DNA of 64,000 nucleotides from a virus (IMGVR_UViG_3300002098_001673:32001-96000), one strand, 5' to 3'. Positions 3,001 through 23,632 are shown, counted from the stretch's first letter. Program-made: numbers and translations. Notes: generated by a model from the letters alone, not told the origin.

Positions 3001-4335
3001 ATATTTAATTTCAGTTTTTGATTTATTACCTAATGTTTCATTATTTTTTAGAAGTTCATTATACCTATTAATAATTTCTTCTAATTTTCCTTCAGCAGCA
3101 TTTTTTGCTGCAGCATCAAGATTTTCTTTAAAAGTATATACTAAAGATTTGTCGTTTAAAACAATAGGTCTTGGGTTTAAAAATGTGTTAAACCATGAAT
3201 TTTGAGAACCTCTTACTTCATCAAAATAATTTTTTAAATTTTCTTTATATGTTCTAATATTTGTTAAAGGTTCTAAATCTGCCTTGGTATATGCGTTAGA
3301 AACTGTTTGTTCAAACAAATCTAATTTATTTGATAATTGAATTAATGTTAATTCAGGAAAATTTGGTGCAAGTAATCCTTTCGATTTATACTCACTATAA
3401 ACTTCAACAATTTTTTGATATCCTTTTTCAGTTAATAACTGTTCAACAATATTATTTTTACTATTTGTTAATTCTAATTTGTTTTGTCCTGATTGTCTTG
3501 TTTGTCCTTCTATGGTTGAATTAGTTGTAGATACGTCAGTCGTTGATTTTATAATGTCAAATCTTTGACTATACATATGTGGTGTAGCAACTAAATTACC
3601 AATTGAAATTTCATTTAAAATGTTAAATTTAAATCCATGAAAATTTAAAGTAACTTGATAGTTTCCACTAAATGAGTTGAATCTAGCATTAAATGTTTCA
3701 AGATTTAATTGATATCTAATAGCTTGTCCATAATACCCCTTTAAAGTTAAATAGAATGGACAAAATGGCATATTAAAAAATGCTGCATACGGTGAATTAT
3801 TTCCAAGTTGGAATAACGCTTTACCTTGTACATCTTCAAGTTCAATGGTTACTGATGGTATAAAAGATGTGTTTGTATTCACAGTTATGCTTTTAATACC
3901 TAATAATCCATTATCAATCACATTTTGTGGGTCTACAACTGTATTTTCTATATATGGTTTACTACCATTTTTAGGATAAATTGTTTGAGATTCAGGTTGA
4001 TTTTGTCCATTTTTATCTACAGTATTTTTTCCAGTTAATTCATCATAATATCCATCATTTAAATACCCATTTTTTGATGGTTTTAAAAAATTTATTTTAG
4101 CAATAGATAATGTTCTTGTCCTATCATCAGGACTACCTCCAATAGCCAATTTAGTTCTTGGAACTATTTCAGCCTCAAGATTAGCATACATTACCAAATT
4201 TTCATGGTCGACTAATCTTTCAGATACTTTTCCAAAAACATCAATTGTTTTATTTGGGTCGACTACAATAATATTATTGTAATCAAATTCGACAAGAATG
4301 TCTCCATTGTTATCCGATGTATATTTACCTGCCAT
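1..4335 (-). CDS. Very large baseplate hub/tail-associated structural protein (>=1445 aa, runs off window start; absent from ORF track)
   Basis: ATG at 4335 (MAGKYTSDNNGDILVEFDYNN...). Frame spot-checked open at 3541, 2581, 1261 and 1. N-terminal LLGIKSITVNTNTSFIPSVTIELEDVQG...FYLTLKGYYG resembles hub (gp27-like) beta-strands; follows the LysM/gp53-like gene. Confidence 0.7.
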   Translation of the reverse strand, partial: MAGKYTSDNNGDILVEFDYNNIIVVDPNKTIDVFGKVSERLVDHENLVMYANLEAEIVPRTKLAIGGSPDDRTRTLSIAKINFLKPSKNGYLNDGYYDELTGKNTVDKNGQNQPESQTIYPKNGSKPYIENTVVDPQNVIDNGLLGIKSITVNTNTSFIPSVTIELEDVQGKALFQLGNNSPYAAFFNMPFCPFYLTLKGYYGQAIRYQLNLETFNARFNSFSGNYQVTLNFHGFKFNILNEISIGNLVATPHMYSQRFDIIKSTTDVSTTNSTIEGQTRQSGQNKLELTNSKNNIVEQLLTEKGYQKIVEVYSEYKSKGLLAPNFPELTLIQLSNKLDLFEQTVSNAYTKADLEPLTNIRTYKENLKNYFDEVRGSQNSWFNTFLNPRPIVLNDKSLVYTFKENLDAAAKNAAEGKLEEIINRYNELLKNNETLGNKSKTEIKYDISYKMIKKDVNFNLINWEETTKQQTGIISPTYENTRKVIEKYKDLFKLTFDTETMNIGISNVSLPKTIVPPSFYVFDGEQRFDKTISRIDAEANKKLSEYENLLTEQLAKKIEDSATGIGFKPTIRNIIGVIMASAEAFIRLLDDVHTNAWNMKYDPIRRLAILDNPSSAPSTETRDKVSISNNAQQENQGLSTSQIPVYPWPQFFVETPEDKNGRFQLKYIADPSVVNITKGNLFYVWPEVEFVEEFMKGLIKKVDNPTSQPTTDSNTLTNLININAIEFPQTGIAYQNKEEIKFFYEIWERQLLTSHYSGLIRANKNQISDLITLNIETETNNIVTSLGVSSPYLALKLKNFNYNSNDYQSFLKDISNQGTGRAYQDFIRDFFVTPYIKGITENSFSILNVTDLGKTPQNSPQSPALTQLLKNASNNLLIVDTYPFTNNEWVTKNMNLSSKNQNQYVYNTNKVLTVFQDRNIIANFNNVYDYTVNRPVTNFSYLNVSIPSVVNSEDLNLFYFNRKPKDFIPSEGYCYFVSPSKNTGNQIPTIFNTDKKTTSILNTPYFINAIQNGVYNVRKKDKYPYTQAAYLFLNSLPLASLRERYQSINNENLDYISSCLKKFGAIHKMPYAWVLKFGSIWHRYKKYKESGVDILDGIWNNFNYTENYDPITNFVGKEYTFTNTGEVNETNIVLQEEVQIDEGRATIKLQPGFYPKVINDFNVFYNGYDLYSGYTSYEIQQSVNNGLKIFNFQNSNINGFQGFKALNLKTWSVLLPDRIDDLLGGTECAPKDNTKEENYFVIPSFGVTFNQTKSECFIGNKTVVDLTNNSSMYNGSVRLLWGSPNYGYFDNDQTVKPEPDSYLNFINPTTTEQTPMSLLPFHTYSKIEEIFSVFEKSVLDQFEQEFLNFSKPVTDIDLGLITFEPIGASQVDMNSGFKNFQLLFRHLMTITPKDKLVSEQIYFQNTINNQLETYTNIIKSFLEYDIILRYGNPSNYNRRVFDSFI

Positions 4336-19675: not shown

Positions 19676-22600
19676 ATGAACAAAGAAATAAGTTTAGAAT
19701 CGAAAGCTATGTCCATCCTTGAGACATATGATGGAGGTAATAATTATATATTTGAATTAAAAAGAAAATCTCAAATTAATAAAAAGTTTTATCCGACAAG
19801 AAGTCAATCAGAATATATTATTAATTTTCATGATAAACCACCGAAAATTGCAAAGAAGTGGGTAATATTAGATTCGTATTTTGCACAAAAATTAGCTGAC
19901 GATAAATTATATACAGAAATTCCACAAAAAATTTGGGTTGAAAAACTTTTAGCAGATAAAGAAAAATCTTATCATATTTGGGGAAAAGTATTTGAAACAG
20001 AACAACTTCATGATTTTTGGTTACCAAAGGCATCAATCATTAAAGATAACAGAGTAAAAGATGTTGTTATTAATTATGACAAATATTCAAATCGTCCACC
20101 ACTACCGCATCAAAAAGAAGCGATTCAAAAGCTGGTTGAAAATAAAAAATTTATACTTGCTGACGATATGGGTTTGGGTAAAGGGATTACCAATAACACA
20201 CTGATTTACAATGAATTGGGAGTAAAAAAAATGGGTGAAATTGTGGTTGGAGATAGGGTTATTGGTTCCGATGGTAAAGCATATAATGTGAATGGTGTGT
20301 ATCCTCAAGGAAAAAAAGAAACGTACAAAATCACGTTTAATGATGGATATTCCATAATAACGGATGACGTACATTTATGGTCGGTATCTTCACCCAATTA
20401 TGGTGAAAATAGAAAAAACGAAAGACGAAAAAAATCTTTAACTCTATCTACTAAACAAATGTACGAAGGAGGTAAGATTATAATAAAAGGTGATGGTTAT
20501 AATTCGGAAAAAAAATATGAAGTTGAAACTTTTTATAAATCACCAAACGGAAATAATAAATGGCAAATACCTATTGTTCAACCTATCCATTTCAAAAATA
20601 AATATGATTTACCAATTGACCCCTATTTGTTGGGACTATCGTTGGGTGACGGTTATTTTGATAAGTACAAGAATTGTCGCTTTACCGTTCACAAAAATGA
20701 TTATGATGAATTATTTCAAAATTTTGATTTGAAAAAAATCAAAACAAGAGTCAATCAAAAAGGTGGATATATAAATTTTCAAAATAAATTAAATGACTTA
20801 AAATTAAACAATACTAAAGCCCATAATAAATTTATACCTGATATATACAAATACACATCAATTGAAAATCGTCTTGCGATTTTACAAGGTTTAATGGACA
20901 CTGATGGTCACTGTATGATATCAAAAAACGGTAGTTTTAACGGAACCGAATTTTCAACAATTTCAGAAAAACTTTGTGATGATGTTTGTGAAATTGTACA
21001 AACATTGGGTGGAATAGCACGTAAAAAATCAAGACGTAGTTTCTACAAAAAAGATGGTAAACGAATTGAATGTAACATATCTTATCGAGTTAACATTAAA
21101 TTACCAAAGGGTATGAACCCATTTAAGTTAAAAAGAAAAGCAGATAGATATGTCGAACCAAAAAAATATCCAATCGGAAGATATATAACAAATATTGAAA
21201 AATATGGGGAAGATGAATGTACTTGTATATCTGTGGATTCTCCAGATAAATTATATGTAGCCCAACATTGTATAGTAACACATAATACTACGTCAACCAT
21301 AATTGCCACTTTAGAAACAGGAGCAAAAAAAGTTCTGATTATATGTCCTGCAACACTTAAGATAAATTGGAAAAGAGAAATTGAAAACTATACAGACAGA
21401 AGTATATTCATTGCGGAAGGTAAAAACTTTTCAACCGTTCACGATTTTGTTATAATAAATTATGATATCATAAAAAATTTTCACGAAACCAAAAAGAATG
21501 GTAAATCTTTAATTAACGATACAAATTTTGATTTAGTAATTTTAGATGAATGTTTTACATACGACACTAAAATTATGACCGAATCTGGTGAAAAAAATAT
21601 TGGAGATATTGTAGAGAATGGATTAGATATTAAAATTTTAACATATAACCATAGAAATAAAATTTTGGAATATAAAAAAATAAATAGATGGATTAGAAAA
21701 AATAAAGACACTATTTACAAAATAAAACTCAACAACGGACTATTTTTAGAGTGTACTGATAATCATAAATTCTATGTAAATAATAAAGGATATGTTAGGG
21801 CAAACGAACTCACAACAACCGATGACTTGTATATGTTGTCAGAAATTACTAACGAAGAAACAGATTTGGAAAAAAACAAAATGTTGCTCAAAAAGTTGTG
21901 CATCTATAATAAGGAACAAAACTTCACCACAAAAAACAAAAGAATTGAAGTTTCACAAAAATTGTCCGGAATGTGGAATCCTAATGAGTTTTACAACGGA
22001 CATAAAAATGAAAAAGAAAACATATTGCTCTGTAAAATGTTCAAACAAAGTAAAATCAAAAAATCCAGAGGTAAGAGAAAAACGGAGAAAAACAATAGAA
22101 AAAAATGGGGGGTGGTCAAAAATAATGAAAAATACTCATATGAAAAATCCTCATACGGCAAAATTTTCTTCTCAAAGGATGAAAAAAAACAACCCAATGA
22201 AAAATTTGGAGAGTTTAGAAAAAATGAGAGAAAAATTAAAAGGAAGAACCTTCTTATCAAGAGGAGGGAATGGGAAAATAACACCACAACAAGAAATATT
22301 ATTTCAAATGTTAGGGGAAGGATGGATAATGGAATTACCAATTCTAACAGAAAATGCAAAAATGTTATTCAAAAGTTTGCCACCATCATACAAAGTAGAT
22401 ATTGGAAACCCAAAACTAAAAATATCCATAGAAATAGATGGGAGAACGCACAAACAAAAAAAGTGGAAATTTTTGGACAAGAGAAAAACCAAAATATTAA
22501 ATATGTTAGGGTGGAAAGTATTGAGATTTTGGAACGAGGAAGTTATGACAAATCCACAAAAATGCATTCAACAAATACAAGAGTGTATGATTTAGAAATT

Positions 22601-23632
22601 GAGGATAATCATAACTATTTTGCAAATAATATTTTAGTTAGTAATTGTCACTATATCAAAAATGTTACAGCGCAAAGAACAAAACTAATTAATGATTTTG
22701 TAAAAAATATTGACAGGTTATGGTTATTGTCTGGTACACCAATGACATCAAGACCAATTGATTATTTTAATTTATTAAGTTTAGTTGATTCTCCTACAGC
22801 AAAAAATTGGATGGCTTATGCAATTAGATATTGCCAAGGATATCAATTTAATGTTGGAGGTAGAAAAGTTTGGAATGTTGTCGGAGCCTCAAATTTAGAA
22901 GAATTGAGGGATAGAACCTCCCCAACAATCTTAAGAAGATTAAAAGAAGATGTTCTTGATTTGCCTGAAAAAATAATAACACCAATCTACCTTAGATTAA
23001 AATCTAAAGAATATGAAGAAGTTATGGGTGAATATTATAATTGGTATGATAAAAATCCTGAAGAGTCAAAATCATTAACAGTTCAGTTTACCAAATTAAC
23101 AAAAATACGACAAATCATTGCCAATGAAAAAATAGAACATACAATTGAGCTTGCTGAAAATATTATTGAACAAGGAAAAAAAGTAATCATATTTTGTAAC
23201 TTTACAGAATCTTTAGAAAAGATAACACAACACTTTGGTAAGAGTGCTGTTAAGTTAAATGGAACAATGTCAAAGGTAGAGAAACAAAACAGCGTTGACC
23301 AATTTCAAGAAAATGAAAAAATAAAAGTATTTGTTGGTAACATTAAAGCGGCAGGTGTTGGTATTACATTAACTGCTGCTGAAGCTGTTATAATGAATGA
23401 TTTATCTTTTTTACCTTCAGACCATTCACAAGCAGAAGACCGTAGTTATAGGTATGGTCAAAAAAATAATGTTTTAGTATATTATCCAATATTTGAAAAT
23501 ACAATTGAAGGGATAATATATGATATATTGAATAATAAAAAACAAGTGATTGCAACAGTAATGGGGGATAATCAAAATTCTGCAAATGCTGCTGAAGAAA
23601 TACTACAAAGAATTAATGAATTAAGGCAATAA
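19676..23632 (+). CDS. SNF2/SWI2-family helicase (SMARCAL1-like) interrupted by two inteins; spliced product about 585 aa
   Basis: LADDMGLGK|T Walker A, ILDE|CH Walker B, LSGTP, RRLKEDVL, AAGVGITLT, QAEDRSYRYGQ. Confidence 0.92.
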   Translation: MNKEISLESKAMSILETYDGGNNYIFELKRKSQINKKFYPTRSQSEYIINFHDKPPKIAKKWVILDSYFAQKLADDKLYTEIPQKIWVEKLLADKEKSYHIWGKVFETEQLHDFWLPKASIIKDNRVKDVVINYDKYSNRPPLPHQKEAIQKLVENKKFILADDMGLGKGITNNTLIYNELGVKKMGEIVVGDRVIGSDGKAYNVNGVYPQGKKETYKITFNDGYSIITDDVHLWSVSSPNYGENRKNERRKKSLTLSTKQMYEGGKIIIKGDGYNSEKKYEVETFYKSPNGNNKWQIPIVQPIHFKNKYDLPIDPYLLGLSLGDGYFDKYKNCRFTVHKNDYDELFQNFDLKKIKTRVNQKGGYINFQNKLNDLKLNNTKAHNKFIPDIYKYTSIENRLAILQGLMDTDGHCMISKNGSFNGTEFSTISEKLCDDVCEIVQTLGGIARKKSRRSFYKKDGKRIECNISYRVNIKLPKGMNPFKLKRKADRYVEPKKYPIGRYITNIEKYGEDECTCISVDSPDKLYVAQHCIVTHNTTSTIIATLETGAKKVLIICPATLKINWKREIENYTDRSIFIAEGKNFSTVHDFVIINYDIIKNFHETKKNGKSLINDTNFDLVILDECFTYDTKIMTESGEKNIGDIVENGLDIKILTYNHRNKILEYKKINRWIRKNKDTIYKIKLNNGLFLECTDNHKFYVNNKGYVRANELTTTDDLYMLSEITNEETDLEKNKMLLKKLCIYNKEQNFTTKNKRIEVSQKLSGMWNPNEFYNGHKNEKENILLCKMFKQSKIKKSRGKRKTEKNNRKKWGVVKNNEKYSYEKSSYGKIFFSKDEKKQPNEKFGEFRKNERKIKRKNLLIKRREWENNTTTRNIISNVRGRMDNGITNSNRKCKNVIQKFATIIQSRYWKPKTKNIHRNRWENAQTKKVEIFGQEKNQNIKYVRVESIEILERGSYDKSTKMHSTNTRVYDLEIEDNHNYFANNILVSNCHYIKNVTAQRTKLINDFVKNIDRLWLLSGTPMTSRPIDYFNLLSLVDSPTAKNWMAYAIRYCQGYQFNVGGRKVWNVVGASNLEELRDRTSPTILRRLKEDVLDLPEKIITPIYLRLKSKEYEEVMGEYYNWYDKNPEESKSLTVQFTKLTKIRQIIANEKIEHTIELAENIIEQGKKVIIFCNFTESLEKITQHFGKSAVKLNGTMSKVEKQNSVDQFQENEKIKVFVGNIKAAGVGITLTAAEAVIMNDLSFLPSDHSQAEDRSYRYGQKNNVLVYYPIFENTIEGIIYDILNNKKQVIATVMGDNQNSANAAEEILQRINELRQ
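20183..21286 (+). mobile_element. Intein 1 (368 aa): class 3-type, Gly at position 1, with LAGLIDADG homing endonuclease
   Basis: Inserted in Walker A (GLGK|T). Starts GITNNT; block B DVHLW; block F CTCISV; ends IVTHN|T. LAGLIDADG motifs LLGLSLGDG and LQGLMDTDG. Confidence 0.88.
21551..22645 (+). mobile_element. Intein 2 (365 aa): class 1, inserted in the DECH motif
   Basis: Starts CFTYDT; block B CTDNHKF; ends VYDLEIEDNHNYFANNILVSN|C. Confidence 0.9.
21792..22595 (+). CDS. Vsr/DUF559-like (PD-D/ExK) endonuclease encoded in the +1 frame inside intein 2
   Basis: Two CxxC...CSxxC Zn-finger-like units; NUMOD-like NPMKNLESLEKMREKLKG; C-terminal YKVDIG...IEIDGRTH...DKRKTKILNMLGWKVLRFWNEEV. Alternative start ATG 21822. 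Confidence 0.82.
   Translation: MLGQTNSQQPMTCICCQKLLTKKQIWKKTKCCSKSCASIIRNKTSPQKTKELKFHKNCPECGILMSFTTDIKMKKKTYCSVKCSNKVKSKNPEVREKRRKTIEKNGGWSKIMKNTHMKNPHTAKFSSQRMKKNNPMKNLESLEKMREKLKGRTFLSRGGNGKITPQQEILFQMLGEGWIMELPILTENAKMLFKSLPPSYKVDIGNPKLKISIEIDGRTHKQKKWKFLDKRKTKILNMLGWKVLRFWNEEVMTNPQKCIQQIQECMI

Follow-up and report, generated by a model that had tools for sequence, protein, structure and literature searches.

In the window analyzed here, a 64,000-nucleotide (nt) stretch of viral DNA (IMGVR_UViG_3300002098_001673:32001-96000, positions counted from its first letter), a gene for an SNF2-family helicase carries two inteins, and the second of these, intein 2, is most probably a composite mobile element in which the same DNA serves two reading frames; we put the probability of this reading at about 0.85. 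In the helicase frame (frame 0), two halves of a splicing (Hint) domain are separated by a long linker, and the +1 frame over the same DNA encodes a predicted EDxHD/Vsr-type homing endonuclease of 267 amino acids (aa). An intein at 21551-22645 with a nuclease in the +1 frame at 21792-22595 had been proposed in an earlier note made from the sequence alone, and Pfam searches agreed with it in coordinates and content. The features on which the argument depends, including the open reading frame (ORF) of the helicase, are as follows.

19676..23632, plus strand: SNF2-family helicase precursor ORF, 1318 aa, with two inteins (Pfam SNF2-rel_dom, Helicase_C and Intein_splicing).

21551..22645, plus strand: intein 2, which has 365 aa in frame 0 and follows the Walker B/DExH 'DE' (Pfam Intein_splicing, PF14890, E 7.9e-14, 52 bits against a cut-off of 35.8; alignment A2; empty-site alleles reading ...GATGAA|GCACAC...).

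21551..21791, plus strand: N-terminal part of the Hint domain with blocks A and B, coding in a single frame (wobble maximum at frame-0 position 3, 0.087/0.082/0.276; ratio of nonsynonymous to synonymous substitution rates, dN/dS, 0.16).

21792..22595, plus strand: homing endonuclease gene in the +1 frame, 267 aa, with two Zn-ribbon-like units, a helical repeat region (RMKxNNPMxN) and a predicted EDxHD/Vsr-type nuclease domain with E214, D216, H220 and D229 (Pfam DUF559, PDB profile, AlphaFold, Foldseek, alignment A1 and dN/dS 0.13).

21792..21842, plus strand: N-terminal overlap, in which nuclease codons 1-17 lie over the Hint strand GYVRANELTTTDDLYML; ATG 21792 is inside Tyr-Val codons and is conserved in all close relatives.

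21843..22499, plus strand: dual-coded core, with the nuclease under purifying selection and frame 0 forming a K/N/R/E-rich read-through linker kept only stop-free (variation at frame-0 positions 0.385/0.176/0.152; linker pLDDT 21-28).

22500..22595, plus strand: C-terminal overlap with both frames constrained, the nuclease tail (GWKVLRFWNEEV...MI and stop) lying over the Hint strands VRVESIEILERG...RVYDL (codon positions 0.048/0.044/0.11, all conserved; alignment A2).

22646..22648, plus strand: Cys+1 codon of the C-extein; the predicted spliced helicase reads DECH, as against DEAH in intein-free alleles.

Judging from its profile matches and structure model, the +1 protein is an EDxHD/Vsr-type homing endonuclease. 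It matched Pfam DUF559 with an E-value of 6.4e-15 (55 bits against a cut-off of 20.6) and also MTES_1575, and profile comparison against PDB gave 3hrl, a DUF559 structure, at 8e-13 and I-Bth0305I (3r3p) at 0.005. The AlphaFold model of the nuclease had a pLDDT of 84, with values above 90 over residues 160-267, the nuclease domain, and the top ranks of Foldseek were occupied by 3hrl (TMt 0.79), 3r3p (0.67), TnsA and Vsr with probabilities of 0.9-1.0. In alignment A1, composed of 22 homologues, the catalytic residues E214, D216, H220 and D229 are invariant, and two CxxC...C units, the RMKxNNPMxN region and GRTFLSRGGNG are conserved. The two Zn-finger-like units and the Vsr/DUF559-type end proposed in the earlier note were therefore supported, but the label NUMOD-like given there to a further segment has no HMM support, since Pfam gave no NUMOD match in the N-terminal half of the nuclease even at E 10; the conserved RMKxNNPMxN and the helical repeats are present in this half. 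A search of PHROGs gave no match for the nuclease.

Over 21777-22593, neither frame 0 nor the +1 frame contains a stop codon, and the third frame contains 35. The openness of frame 0 is not due to chance and has been kept by selection. When the nuclease was recoded by the codon usage of the window, frame 0 acquired 25.9 stops on average, and when the nuclease's own synonymous codons were shuffled, it acquired 11.9, as against 0 observed; in each of the two procedures, 0 of 20,000 trials was stop-free. The DNA is 49% A, and this A-richness does not explain the open frame 0. A stop arises in frame 0 when a nuclease codon has T at its third position (T3) and the next codon starts with AA, AG or GA. 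T3 is absent before AA, AG and GA codons of the nuclease (0/101) and is used at 28% elsewhere, and third-base T amounts to 18% in the nuclease ORF as against 44% in the other genes of the window. The earlier note had pointed out that both frames stay stop-free for 804 nt and had suggested testing for a depletion of NNT before AAN, AGN and GAN codons; the former is beyond chance and the latter is complete. We attribute an antisense ORF of 122 aa (21991-22359) to the purine richness of the sense strand and disregard it; neither relatives nor domains were sought for this ORF.

Which of the two frames is selected as a protein was examined with five relatives in IMG/VR, which have the same layout and 72-84% nuclease identity, and dN/dS was calculated by NG86 among the six copies. 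There is no indel across the 804 nt in these copies. Substitutions at nuclease codon positions 1, 2 and 3 numbered 583, 525 and 1265, respectively, and amino-acid identity with the relatives was about 0.75 in the nuclease, frame 0 (0.53) being no better conserved than the stop-filled third frame (0.54). The dN/dS value was 0.13 for the nuclease frame, 0.16 for the N-terminal Hint part, 0.23 for the C-extein and 1.41 for the frame-0 linker. Wobble is found at frame-0 position 3 in the exteins and the single-coded Hint parts, moves to frame-0 position 1 (position 3 of the nuclease) over 21843-22499, and is lost over 22500-22595, the segment shared by the tail of the nuclease and conserved strands of the Hint domain. 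The frame-0 region between the Hint halves, which is K/N/R/E-rich, has no domain match in Pfam, and the frame-0 model of the intein gave a pLDDT of 21-28 (about 24) over residues 95-319, although this model was built from only 7 sequences and gave a low score (about 55) even in the Hint part. Selection at the protein level thus acts on the nuclease alone, and the frame-0 linker is selected only for the absence of stops. The description of the in-frame middle as a passenger linker, made in the earlier note, thus held, and the frame-specific dN/dS and the profile and structure searches it had recommended both favored the nuclease frame.

We also considered a functional frame-0 linker, which might, for instance, tether nucleic acids through its basic residues or regulate conditional splicing; both frames would then encode functional polypeptides over 800 nt. 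The linker is strongly K/R/N/E-rich and conditional splicing is known in the literature for some inteins, but this composition follows from the A-rich codons of the nuclease, the identity among relatives (0.53) equals that of the non-coding third frame (0.54), a dN/dS of 1.41 is accompanied by no predicted structure, and two relatives with the same intein (L012 and L013) do without the linker. A functional linker is very unlikely on these grounds.

Assembly error was excluded because independent relatives share the layout without indel. Logan contigs from four freshwater metagenome runs, with depths of 6.5-104, were also identical to the window over the covered stretch and had no indel; three of the four runs may represent the source sample and are then not independent, and contigs rather than raw reads were compared, so that rare variants are possible. 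The paired indel errors considered in the earlier note would convert an in-frame endonuclease intein into the observed layout by two compensating mistakes, and the region is full of A runs, which are prone to homopolymer errors. Against such an artefact, however, stand the identity of the four-run contigs (with the same reservation about three of them), the same phase in five independent metagenome relatives and in 125 distant loci, and an absolute T3 avoidance that is predicted by no error model; its probability is practically negligible. In the runs X1 and X2, short low-depth contigs matched only the last 44 nt of intein 2 (window 22604-22647) and then continued into a different extein (CHKLKQG...), which indicates a related intein in another gene or phage of the same samples.

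The splicing domain of intein 2 has intact motifs. Its ends are Cys1 at 21551, which provides the N-terminal nucleophile, and Asn at 22645, with Cys as the first residue of the C-extein (ILDE|...VSN|CH), and the site is between DE and (C)H of motif II. Block B (TDNH) stands in the context ECTDNHKF, T69 and H72 of its TxxH being invariant in alignment A2, block F is VYDLEIEDNHNYF, and block G is ILVSN, followed by Cys+1; blocks F and G with the terminal Asn and the +1 Cys read VYDLEIEDNHNYFANNILVSN|C, and the exact boundaries are confirmed by empty alleles reading DE|AH. The penultimate His is replaced by Ser (VSN); this His is common, not obligatory, and SN endings occur in 34 of 114 family members, HN endings in 77. 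Frame 0 is stop-free across 19676-23632, and relatives without inteins have a helicase of about 590 aa in which GLGKTT and DEAH are uninterrupted. The intact motifs and the need for a working helicase suggest that intein 2 is removed by protein splicing. The predicted spliced product carries an Ala-to-Cys change in motif II (DECH, DEAH in the empty alleles), which is imposed by the intein.

Two other arrangements were ruled out for the window locus. A canonical intein with an in-frame endonuclease does not agree with a frame 0 that has no domain in the middle region, nor with the related loci, of which 0/132 have the nuclease in frame. A fractured gene with a split intein was also rejected, the intein ORF having no interrupting stops; this feature is present in the relative L083 only.

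The same layout was found repeatedly in a wide family. A search (A1) of IMG/VR and of one genome per GTDB species, together with three phages added from GenBank (Vibrio CP-T1 gp10, Vibrio 1.088.O and Corynebacterium phi673 gp43), gave 132 loci, and 125 of these have the nuclease ORF nested at +1 within a long ORF open on both sides; it was never found in the +2 frame, antisense or in frame. The GC content of the loci ranges from 27 to 69%. Across the nuclease, the host frame has 0 stops in all 126 nested loci (the 125 and the window), for which the median expectation is about 12, and T3 before AA, AG or GA was found 0 times in 10,285 codons, compared with 27% in safe contexts and 23% in the exteins at these loci. 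Intein_splicing is present in the host ORFs, whose inteins end in HN or SN followed by C or S, just past the nuclease stop; in the window, the TAG stop of the nuclease at 22593-22595 falls within block F. The exteins belong to at least six unrelated groups, listed below, and all insertions are after the DE of Walker B.

DnaX-like clamp loaders: 33 loci.

SNF2: 28 loci.

SF2 DEAH/ResIII helicases: 27 loci.

Methylase-helicases: 11 loci.

Chloroflexi helicases: 6 loci.

Others, including UvrD-like DE|CQD: the remaining loci.

Among the loci outside the nested layout, L083 (2300-4500) has a host frame full of stops across the nuclease gene, and a separate Met begins the C-terminal part of the intein; the locus is thus a fractured gene with a split intein and a nuclease of the same family. 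L064 has one host-frame stop. Five bacterial loci have a free-standing copy of the nuclease and no enclosing intein ORF (L101, L107 and L111 of Polaromonas and Massilia, L115 of Pontibacter, and L126); they may be domesticated copies or homing endonuclease genes (HEGs) of another type. One database protein (P0013), in which a helicase N-extein, the N-terminal Hint part and part of the frame-0 linker are joined to the C-terminal half of the nuclease, was rejected as an in-frame fusion of intein and nuclease: its frame 0 switches to the nuclease frame midway on a 2-kb contig by a 1-nt indel or an error, and it is either a broken allele or a sequencing error.

Similarities of the nuclease and of the Hint domain co-vary among the family members (rho 0.45), which is only suggestive, the pairs not being independent, and the nearest nuclease relative is in a different host family for 19 of 114 loci. 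This suggests that the nuclease and the Hint domain travel together as a pair and sometimes switch host genes. An old composite element that moves in one piece is suggested by the +1 phase, which is the same in 125 loci.

Concerning the reason for the uniform phase, a change from NNT to NNC is synonymous in every codon box of the standard code, and in the +1 phase every host-frame stop is therefore removable without changing the nuclease. In the +2 phase, a TGA cannot be avoided wherever a codon beginning with A comes after Met; the +1 phase is thus advantageous, not necessary. Common descent of the composite element is a simpler reason for the uniform phase than selected design. That the fixed phase is a selected design beyond shared ancestry, an old phase-locked pair of Walker-B intein and EDxHD gene having hopped among at least six NTPase families, is an idea we find possible and hold with considerable doubt. 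Should it be true, +1 would be the one phase in which all host-frame stops can be removed by synonymous T-to-C changes in the nuclease, and the start and stop of the nuclease would have been placed inside conserved Hint strands. Nuclease synthesis would then be tied to the host mRNA, with helicase-frame ribosomes crossing the internal start, and would be low in level and timed to replication, and the element would represent the long-sought stable intermediate between free-standing HEGs, fractured genes and canonical inteins.

Separate translation of the nuclease and ribosomal frameshifting had both been proposed in the earlier note, and the family data favor the former. In almost all members, an ATG precedes the first Zn ribbon, and a Shine-Dalgarno (SD)-like core is present 4-17 nt upstream of it in 69 of 119 members (58%), compared with 17% at internal Met codons; many of these starts are textbook examples such as ...GGAGG...ATG. 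SD-like cores of this kind favor independent initiation over frameshifting. In the clade of the window, ATG 21792 is conserved, and the second candidate ATG at 21822 is lost in two relatives (L005 and L006). None of the 46 other large ORFs of the window (150 aa or more) has an SD-like core in its A/T-rich leader (background 7%), and SD-independent initiation therefore appears to be the rule in this phage, so that the missing SD at the nuclease is not special. Such initiation is typical of Bacteroidota-type systems, and the SD-free leaders point to an SD-independent host such as Bacteroidota.

A programmed +1 frameshift would instead produce a fusion of the N-extein, the N-terminal Hint part and the nuclease. 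The phase that is always +1, the ATG of the window clade that has no normal SD, and the +1 frame that opens only 12 nt before this ATG, inside translated sequence, would all be compatible with it. Nevertheless, the ATG before the first Zn ribbon and the SD-like core at the right distance in 58% of the family, the lack of SD in other genes of the window and the waste of one helicase precursor for each nuclease made argue in the opposite direction, and no conserved frameshift or slippery site was seen in the comparison of the window with its relatives. A Ty1-like shift at GTT AGG G was rejected, AGG being AGA in relatives (GTT AGA G). Frameshifting is accordingly a quite improbable source of the nuclease.

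Alleles in different states are found around the window locus. In the 80 closest helicase homologues in IMG/VR (L173-L252, with the site at about 3000; 84-98% C-extein identity), DEAHYIKN is uninterrupted and both inteins are absent, and in intein-bearing relatives the N-terminal Hint part has 83-94% DNA identity as against 47-80% for the flanks. Two relatives (L012, at 3748-4290, and L013) have the same helicase intein with a clean deletion of 184 codons, which removed most of the nuclease and kept both Hint halves; these are natural mini-inteins. Empty alleles and an intein less diverged than its flanks are signs of homing, from which we infer that the element may still be homing at present, and the coexistence of empty, full and mini states is what would be expected of a homing cycle in progress. 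The invasion of a mini-intein by an out-of-frame nuclease, as imagined in the earlier note, is no more than plausible as the origin of the window locus.

In the homing cycle, decay is expected after fixation, and the +1 ORF of the window may be thought of as a relic, with a nuclease now silent or inactive and an intein on its way to a mini-intein. The 184 nuclease codons already lost in L012 and L013 and the frame-fused, probably broken copy P0013 are in line with such decay. The window copy is, however, of full length with all catalytic and Zn-binding residues, dN/dS is 0.13 across the six copies, and the element is far from fixed, 80 closest alleles being empty, which is the condition that keeps a nuclease under selection; we consider a relic unlikely.

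On the basis of these results, we propose that intein 2 works as follows. Frame 0 would be translated with the helicase and yield a Hint domain with about 225 aa of disordered linker between its halves; this linker would have no function of its own and occupy the place of the endonuclease domain in canonical inteins. Splicing would then remove the whole of intein 2, and the remaining SNF2 helicase would read DECH at motif II. Frame +1 holds a gene of the free-standing homing endonuclease type, in which Zn ribbons and a helical region for DNA binding precede an EDxHD/Vsr nuclease and which would be translated alone from ATG 21792 by internal, SD-independent initiation. Its product would cut intein-free alleles at the DE|AH-coding site, for which empty target alleles do exist, and repair would copy the intein and the nuclease into them. 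The codon choice of the nuclease is shaped so that frame 0 meets no stop.

Several points weigh against this proposal. Foldseek matched the nuclease over its 100-aa domain only, and the E-values are therefore modest (about 5e-3). The start of the nuclease in the window clade is odd, with an A/T-rich leader that has no proper SD and with AAAGGA 1 nt before the ATG, and the proposed mechanism of initiation is accordingly tentative. Splicing as predicted must cope with a disordered insert of 225 aa and the penultimate Ser (VSN). The window is 88-97% identical to the closest empty alleles downstream of the site and only 73-77% in the first 200 nt upstream; this asymmetry of the flanks speaks for mobility, but could also come from ordinary recombination. 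Finally, selection across relatives reflects past function, not present-day activity in the window phage.

The principle of an out-of-frame intein endonuclease is already known from preprints of 2025-2026, and the novelty hoped for in the earlier note is lower to that extent. Gosselin, Arsenault and Gogarten (bioRxiv 10.1101/2025.01.02.630785) described actinobacteriophage inteins whose endonuclease is in a separate overlapping ORF, proposed their origin by invasion of a free-standing HEG, and pointed out that annotation misses such genes. Intein 2 has the features of such overlapping-ORF inteins, namely a nuclease ORF between the splicing blocks and in another frame, an open host frame, and selection on the nuclease frame, and it likewise has the splicing domain in the host frame, an unstructured middle, and the real endonuclease in another ORF over the same DNA, its nuclease being unmatched in PHROGs. 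The nucleases of the 2025 study are antisense LAGLIDADG, antisense VSR-like, and sense 'frame 3' endonuclease VII-like enzymes in DNA polymerase, minor capsid, terminase and thymidylate synthase genes, whereas here a sense-strand +1 VSR/EDxHD nuclease is found at Walker B of helicases and clamp loaders, with the phase fixed in 125 loci of many phyla. Phillips, DeSimone and Gogarten (bioRxiv 10.64898/2026.09.14.751524) reported a cyanobacterial dnaX intein with a sense, out-of-frame LAGLIDADG endonuclease, and Gorbalenya (1998), as cited by them, gave the first hint of an out-of-frame intein endonuclease. Their system resembles ours in the sense overlapping ORF, the disordered in-frame middle, a high omega for the host frame with a low one for the nuclease frame, and the coexistence of full, mini and empty alleles; it differs in its LAGLIDADG type, in a phase named '+2 ORF' and in its location on cyanobacterial chromosomes, the DnaX-like hosts surveyed here carrying the EDxHD nuclease.

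The nuclease family itself is known from other arrangements. Dassa et al. (2009; PMC2677866) found a free-standing Vsr-like (EDxHD) HEG between split-intein halves and stated that Vsr-like nucleases were 'not known to be present in inteins', and I-Bth0305I was characterized by Taylor et al. (2011; PMC3239194). Intein 2 shares with the fractured genes and I-Bth0305I the nuclease family, the location in phage replication and repair genes, and the overlap of the HEG 3' end with the C-terminal intein part, and L083 is exactly a fractured gene of the type of Dassa et al. Unlike fractured genes, however, the frame of intein 2 is uninterrupted and contiguous, with predicted splicing in cis, and I-Bth0305I resides in a group I intron, unlike the intein 2 nuclease. 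The hidden out-of-frame nucleases in phage insertion elements mentioned in the earlier note are probably represented by the ShiLan insertion in a phage methylase, which conceals an HNH endonuclease out of frame (Arsenault et al., 2025; PMC11855218). There, too, the host frame stays open throughout the insert, and the actual product of the insert is a nuclease read in a different frame; in contrast to intein 2, the insertion has no splicing domain, stays in the host protein and encodes an HNH nuclease. In the literature searched, we found neither a sense-strand +1 EDxHD/Vsr-type nuclease in Walker-B inteins nor its near-universality there.

These results describe a whole family of inteins with the homing endonuclease in an overlapping frame, at hundreds of loci in phages and bacteria, about 340 having been detected, and at Walker B of helicases and clamp loaders. 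Because the nuclease is hidden in the overlapping frame, gene callers and family libraries miss it, and such inteins are mis-scored as endonuclease-free or decaying. Four living states of one nuclease-intein pair, i.e., contiguous and overlapped, fractured, nuclease-deleted and empty, make models of endonuclease gain and loss testable. The family is also an unusually clean case of overprinting, one frame being selected as a protein and the other only for no stops, and can serve to benchmark methods for the detection of dual coding.

The window belongs to a fragment of 105 kb from a large freshwater phage, with a CheckV completeness of 36%, and genes for tail sheath, adaptor and DNA polymerase adjoin the helicase locus. 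A blastn search of the region against GenBank phages gave no match, and no tRNA genes were found in the window. The first intein of the helicase is given here as context and is outside the finding.

20183..21286, plus strand: intein 1, which interrupts Walker A (GLGK|G...THN|T) and has its LAGLIDADG domain in frame (Pfam LAGLIDADG_3 and Hom_end; boundaries taken from relatives reading GLGKTTSTII without intein 1).

Intein 1 (GLGK|G...VTHN|T) begins with Gly, neither Cys nor Ser. It is missing in the close relatives L005-L010, which read GLGKTT, and a helicase with two inteins was also found in L024 and L025.

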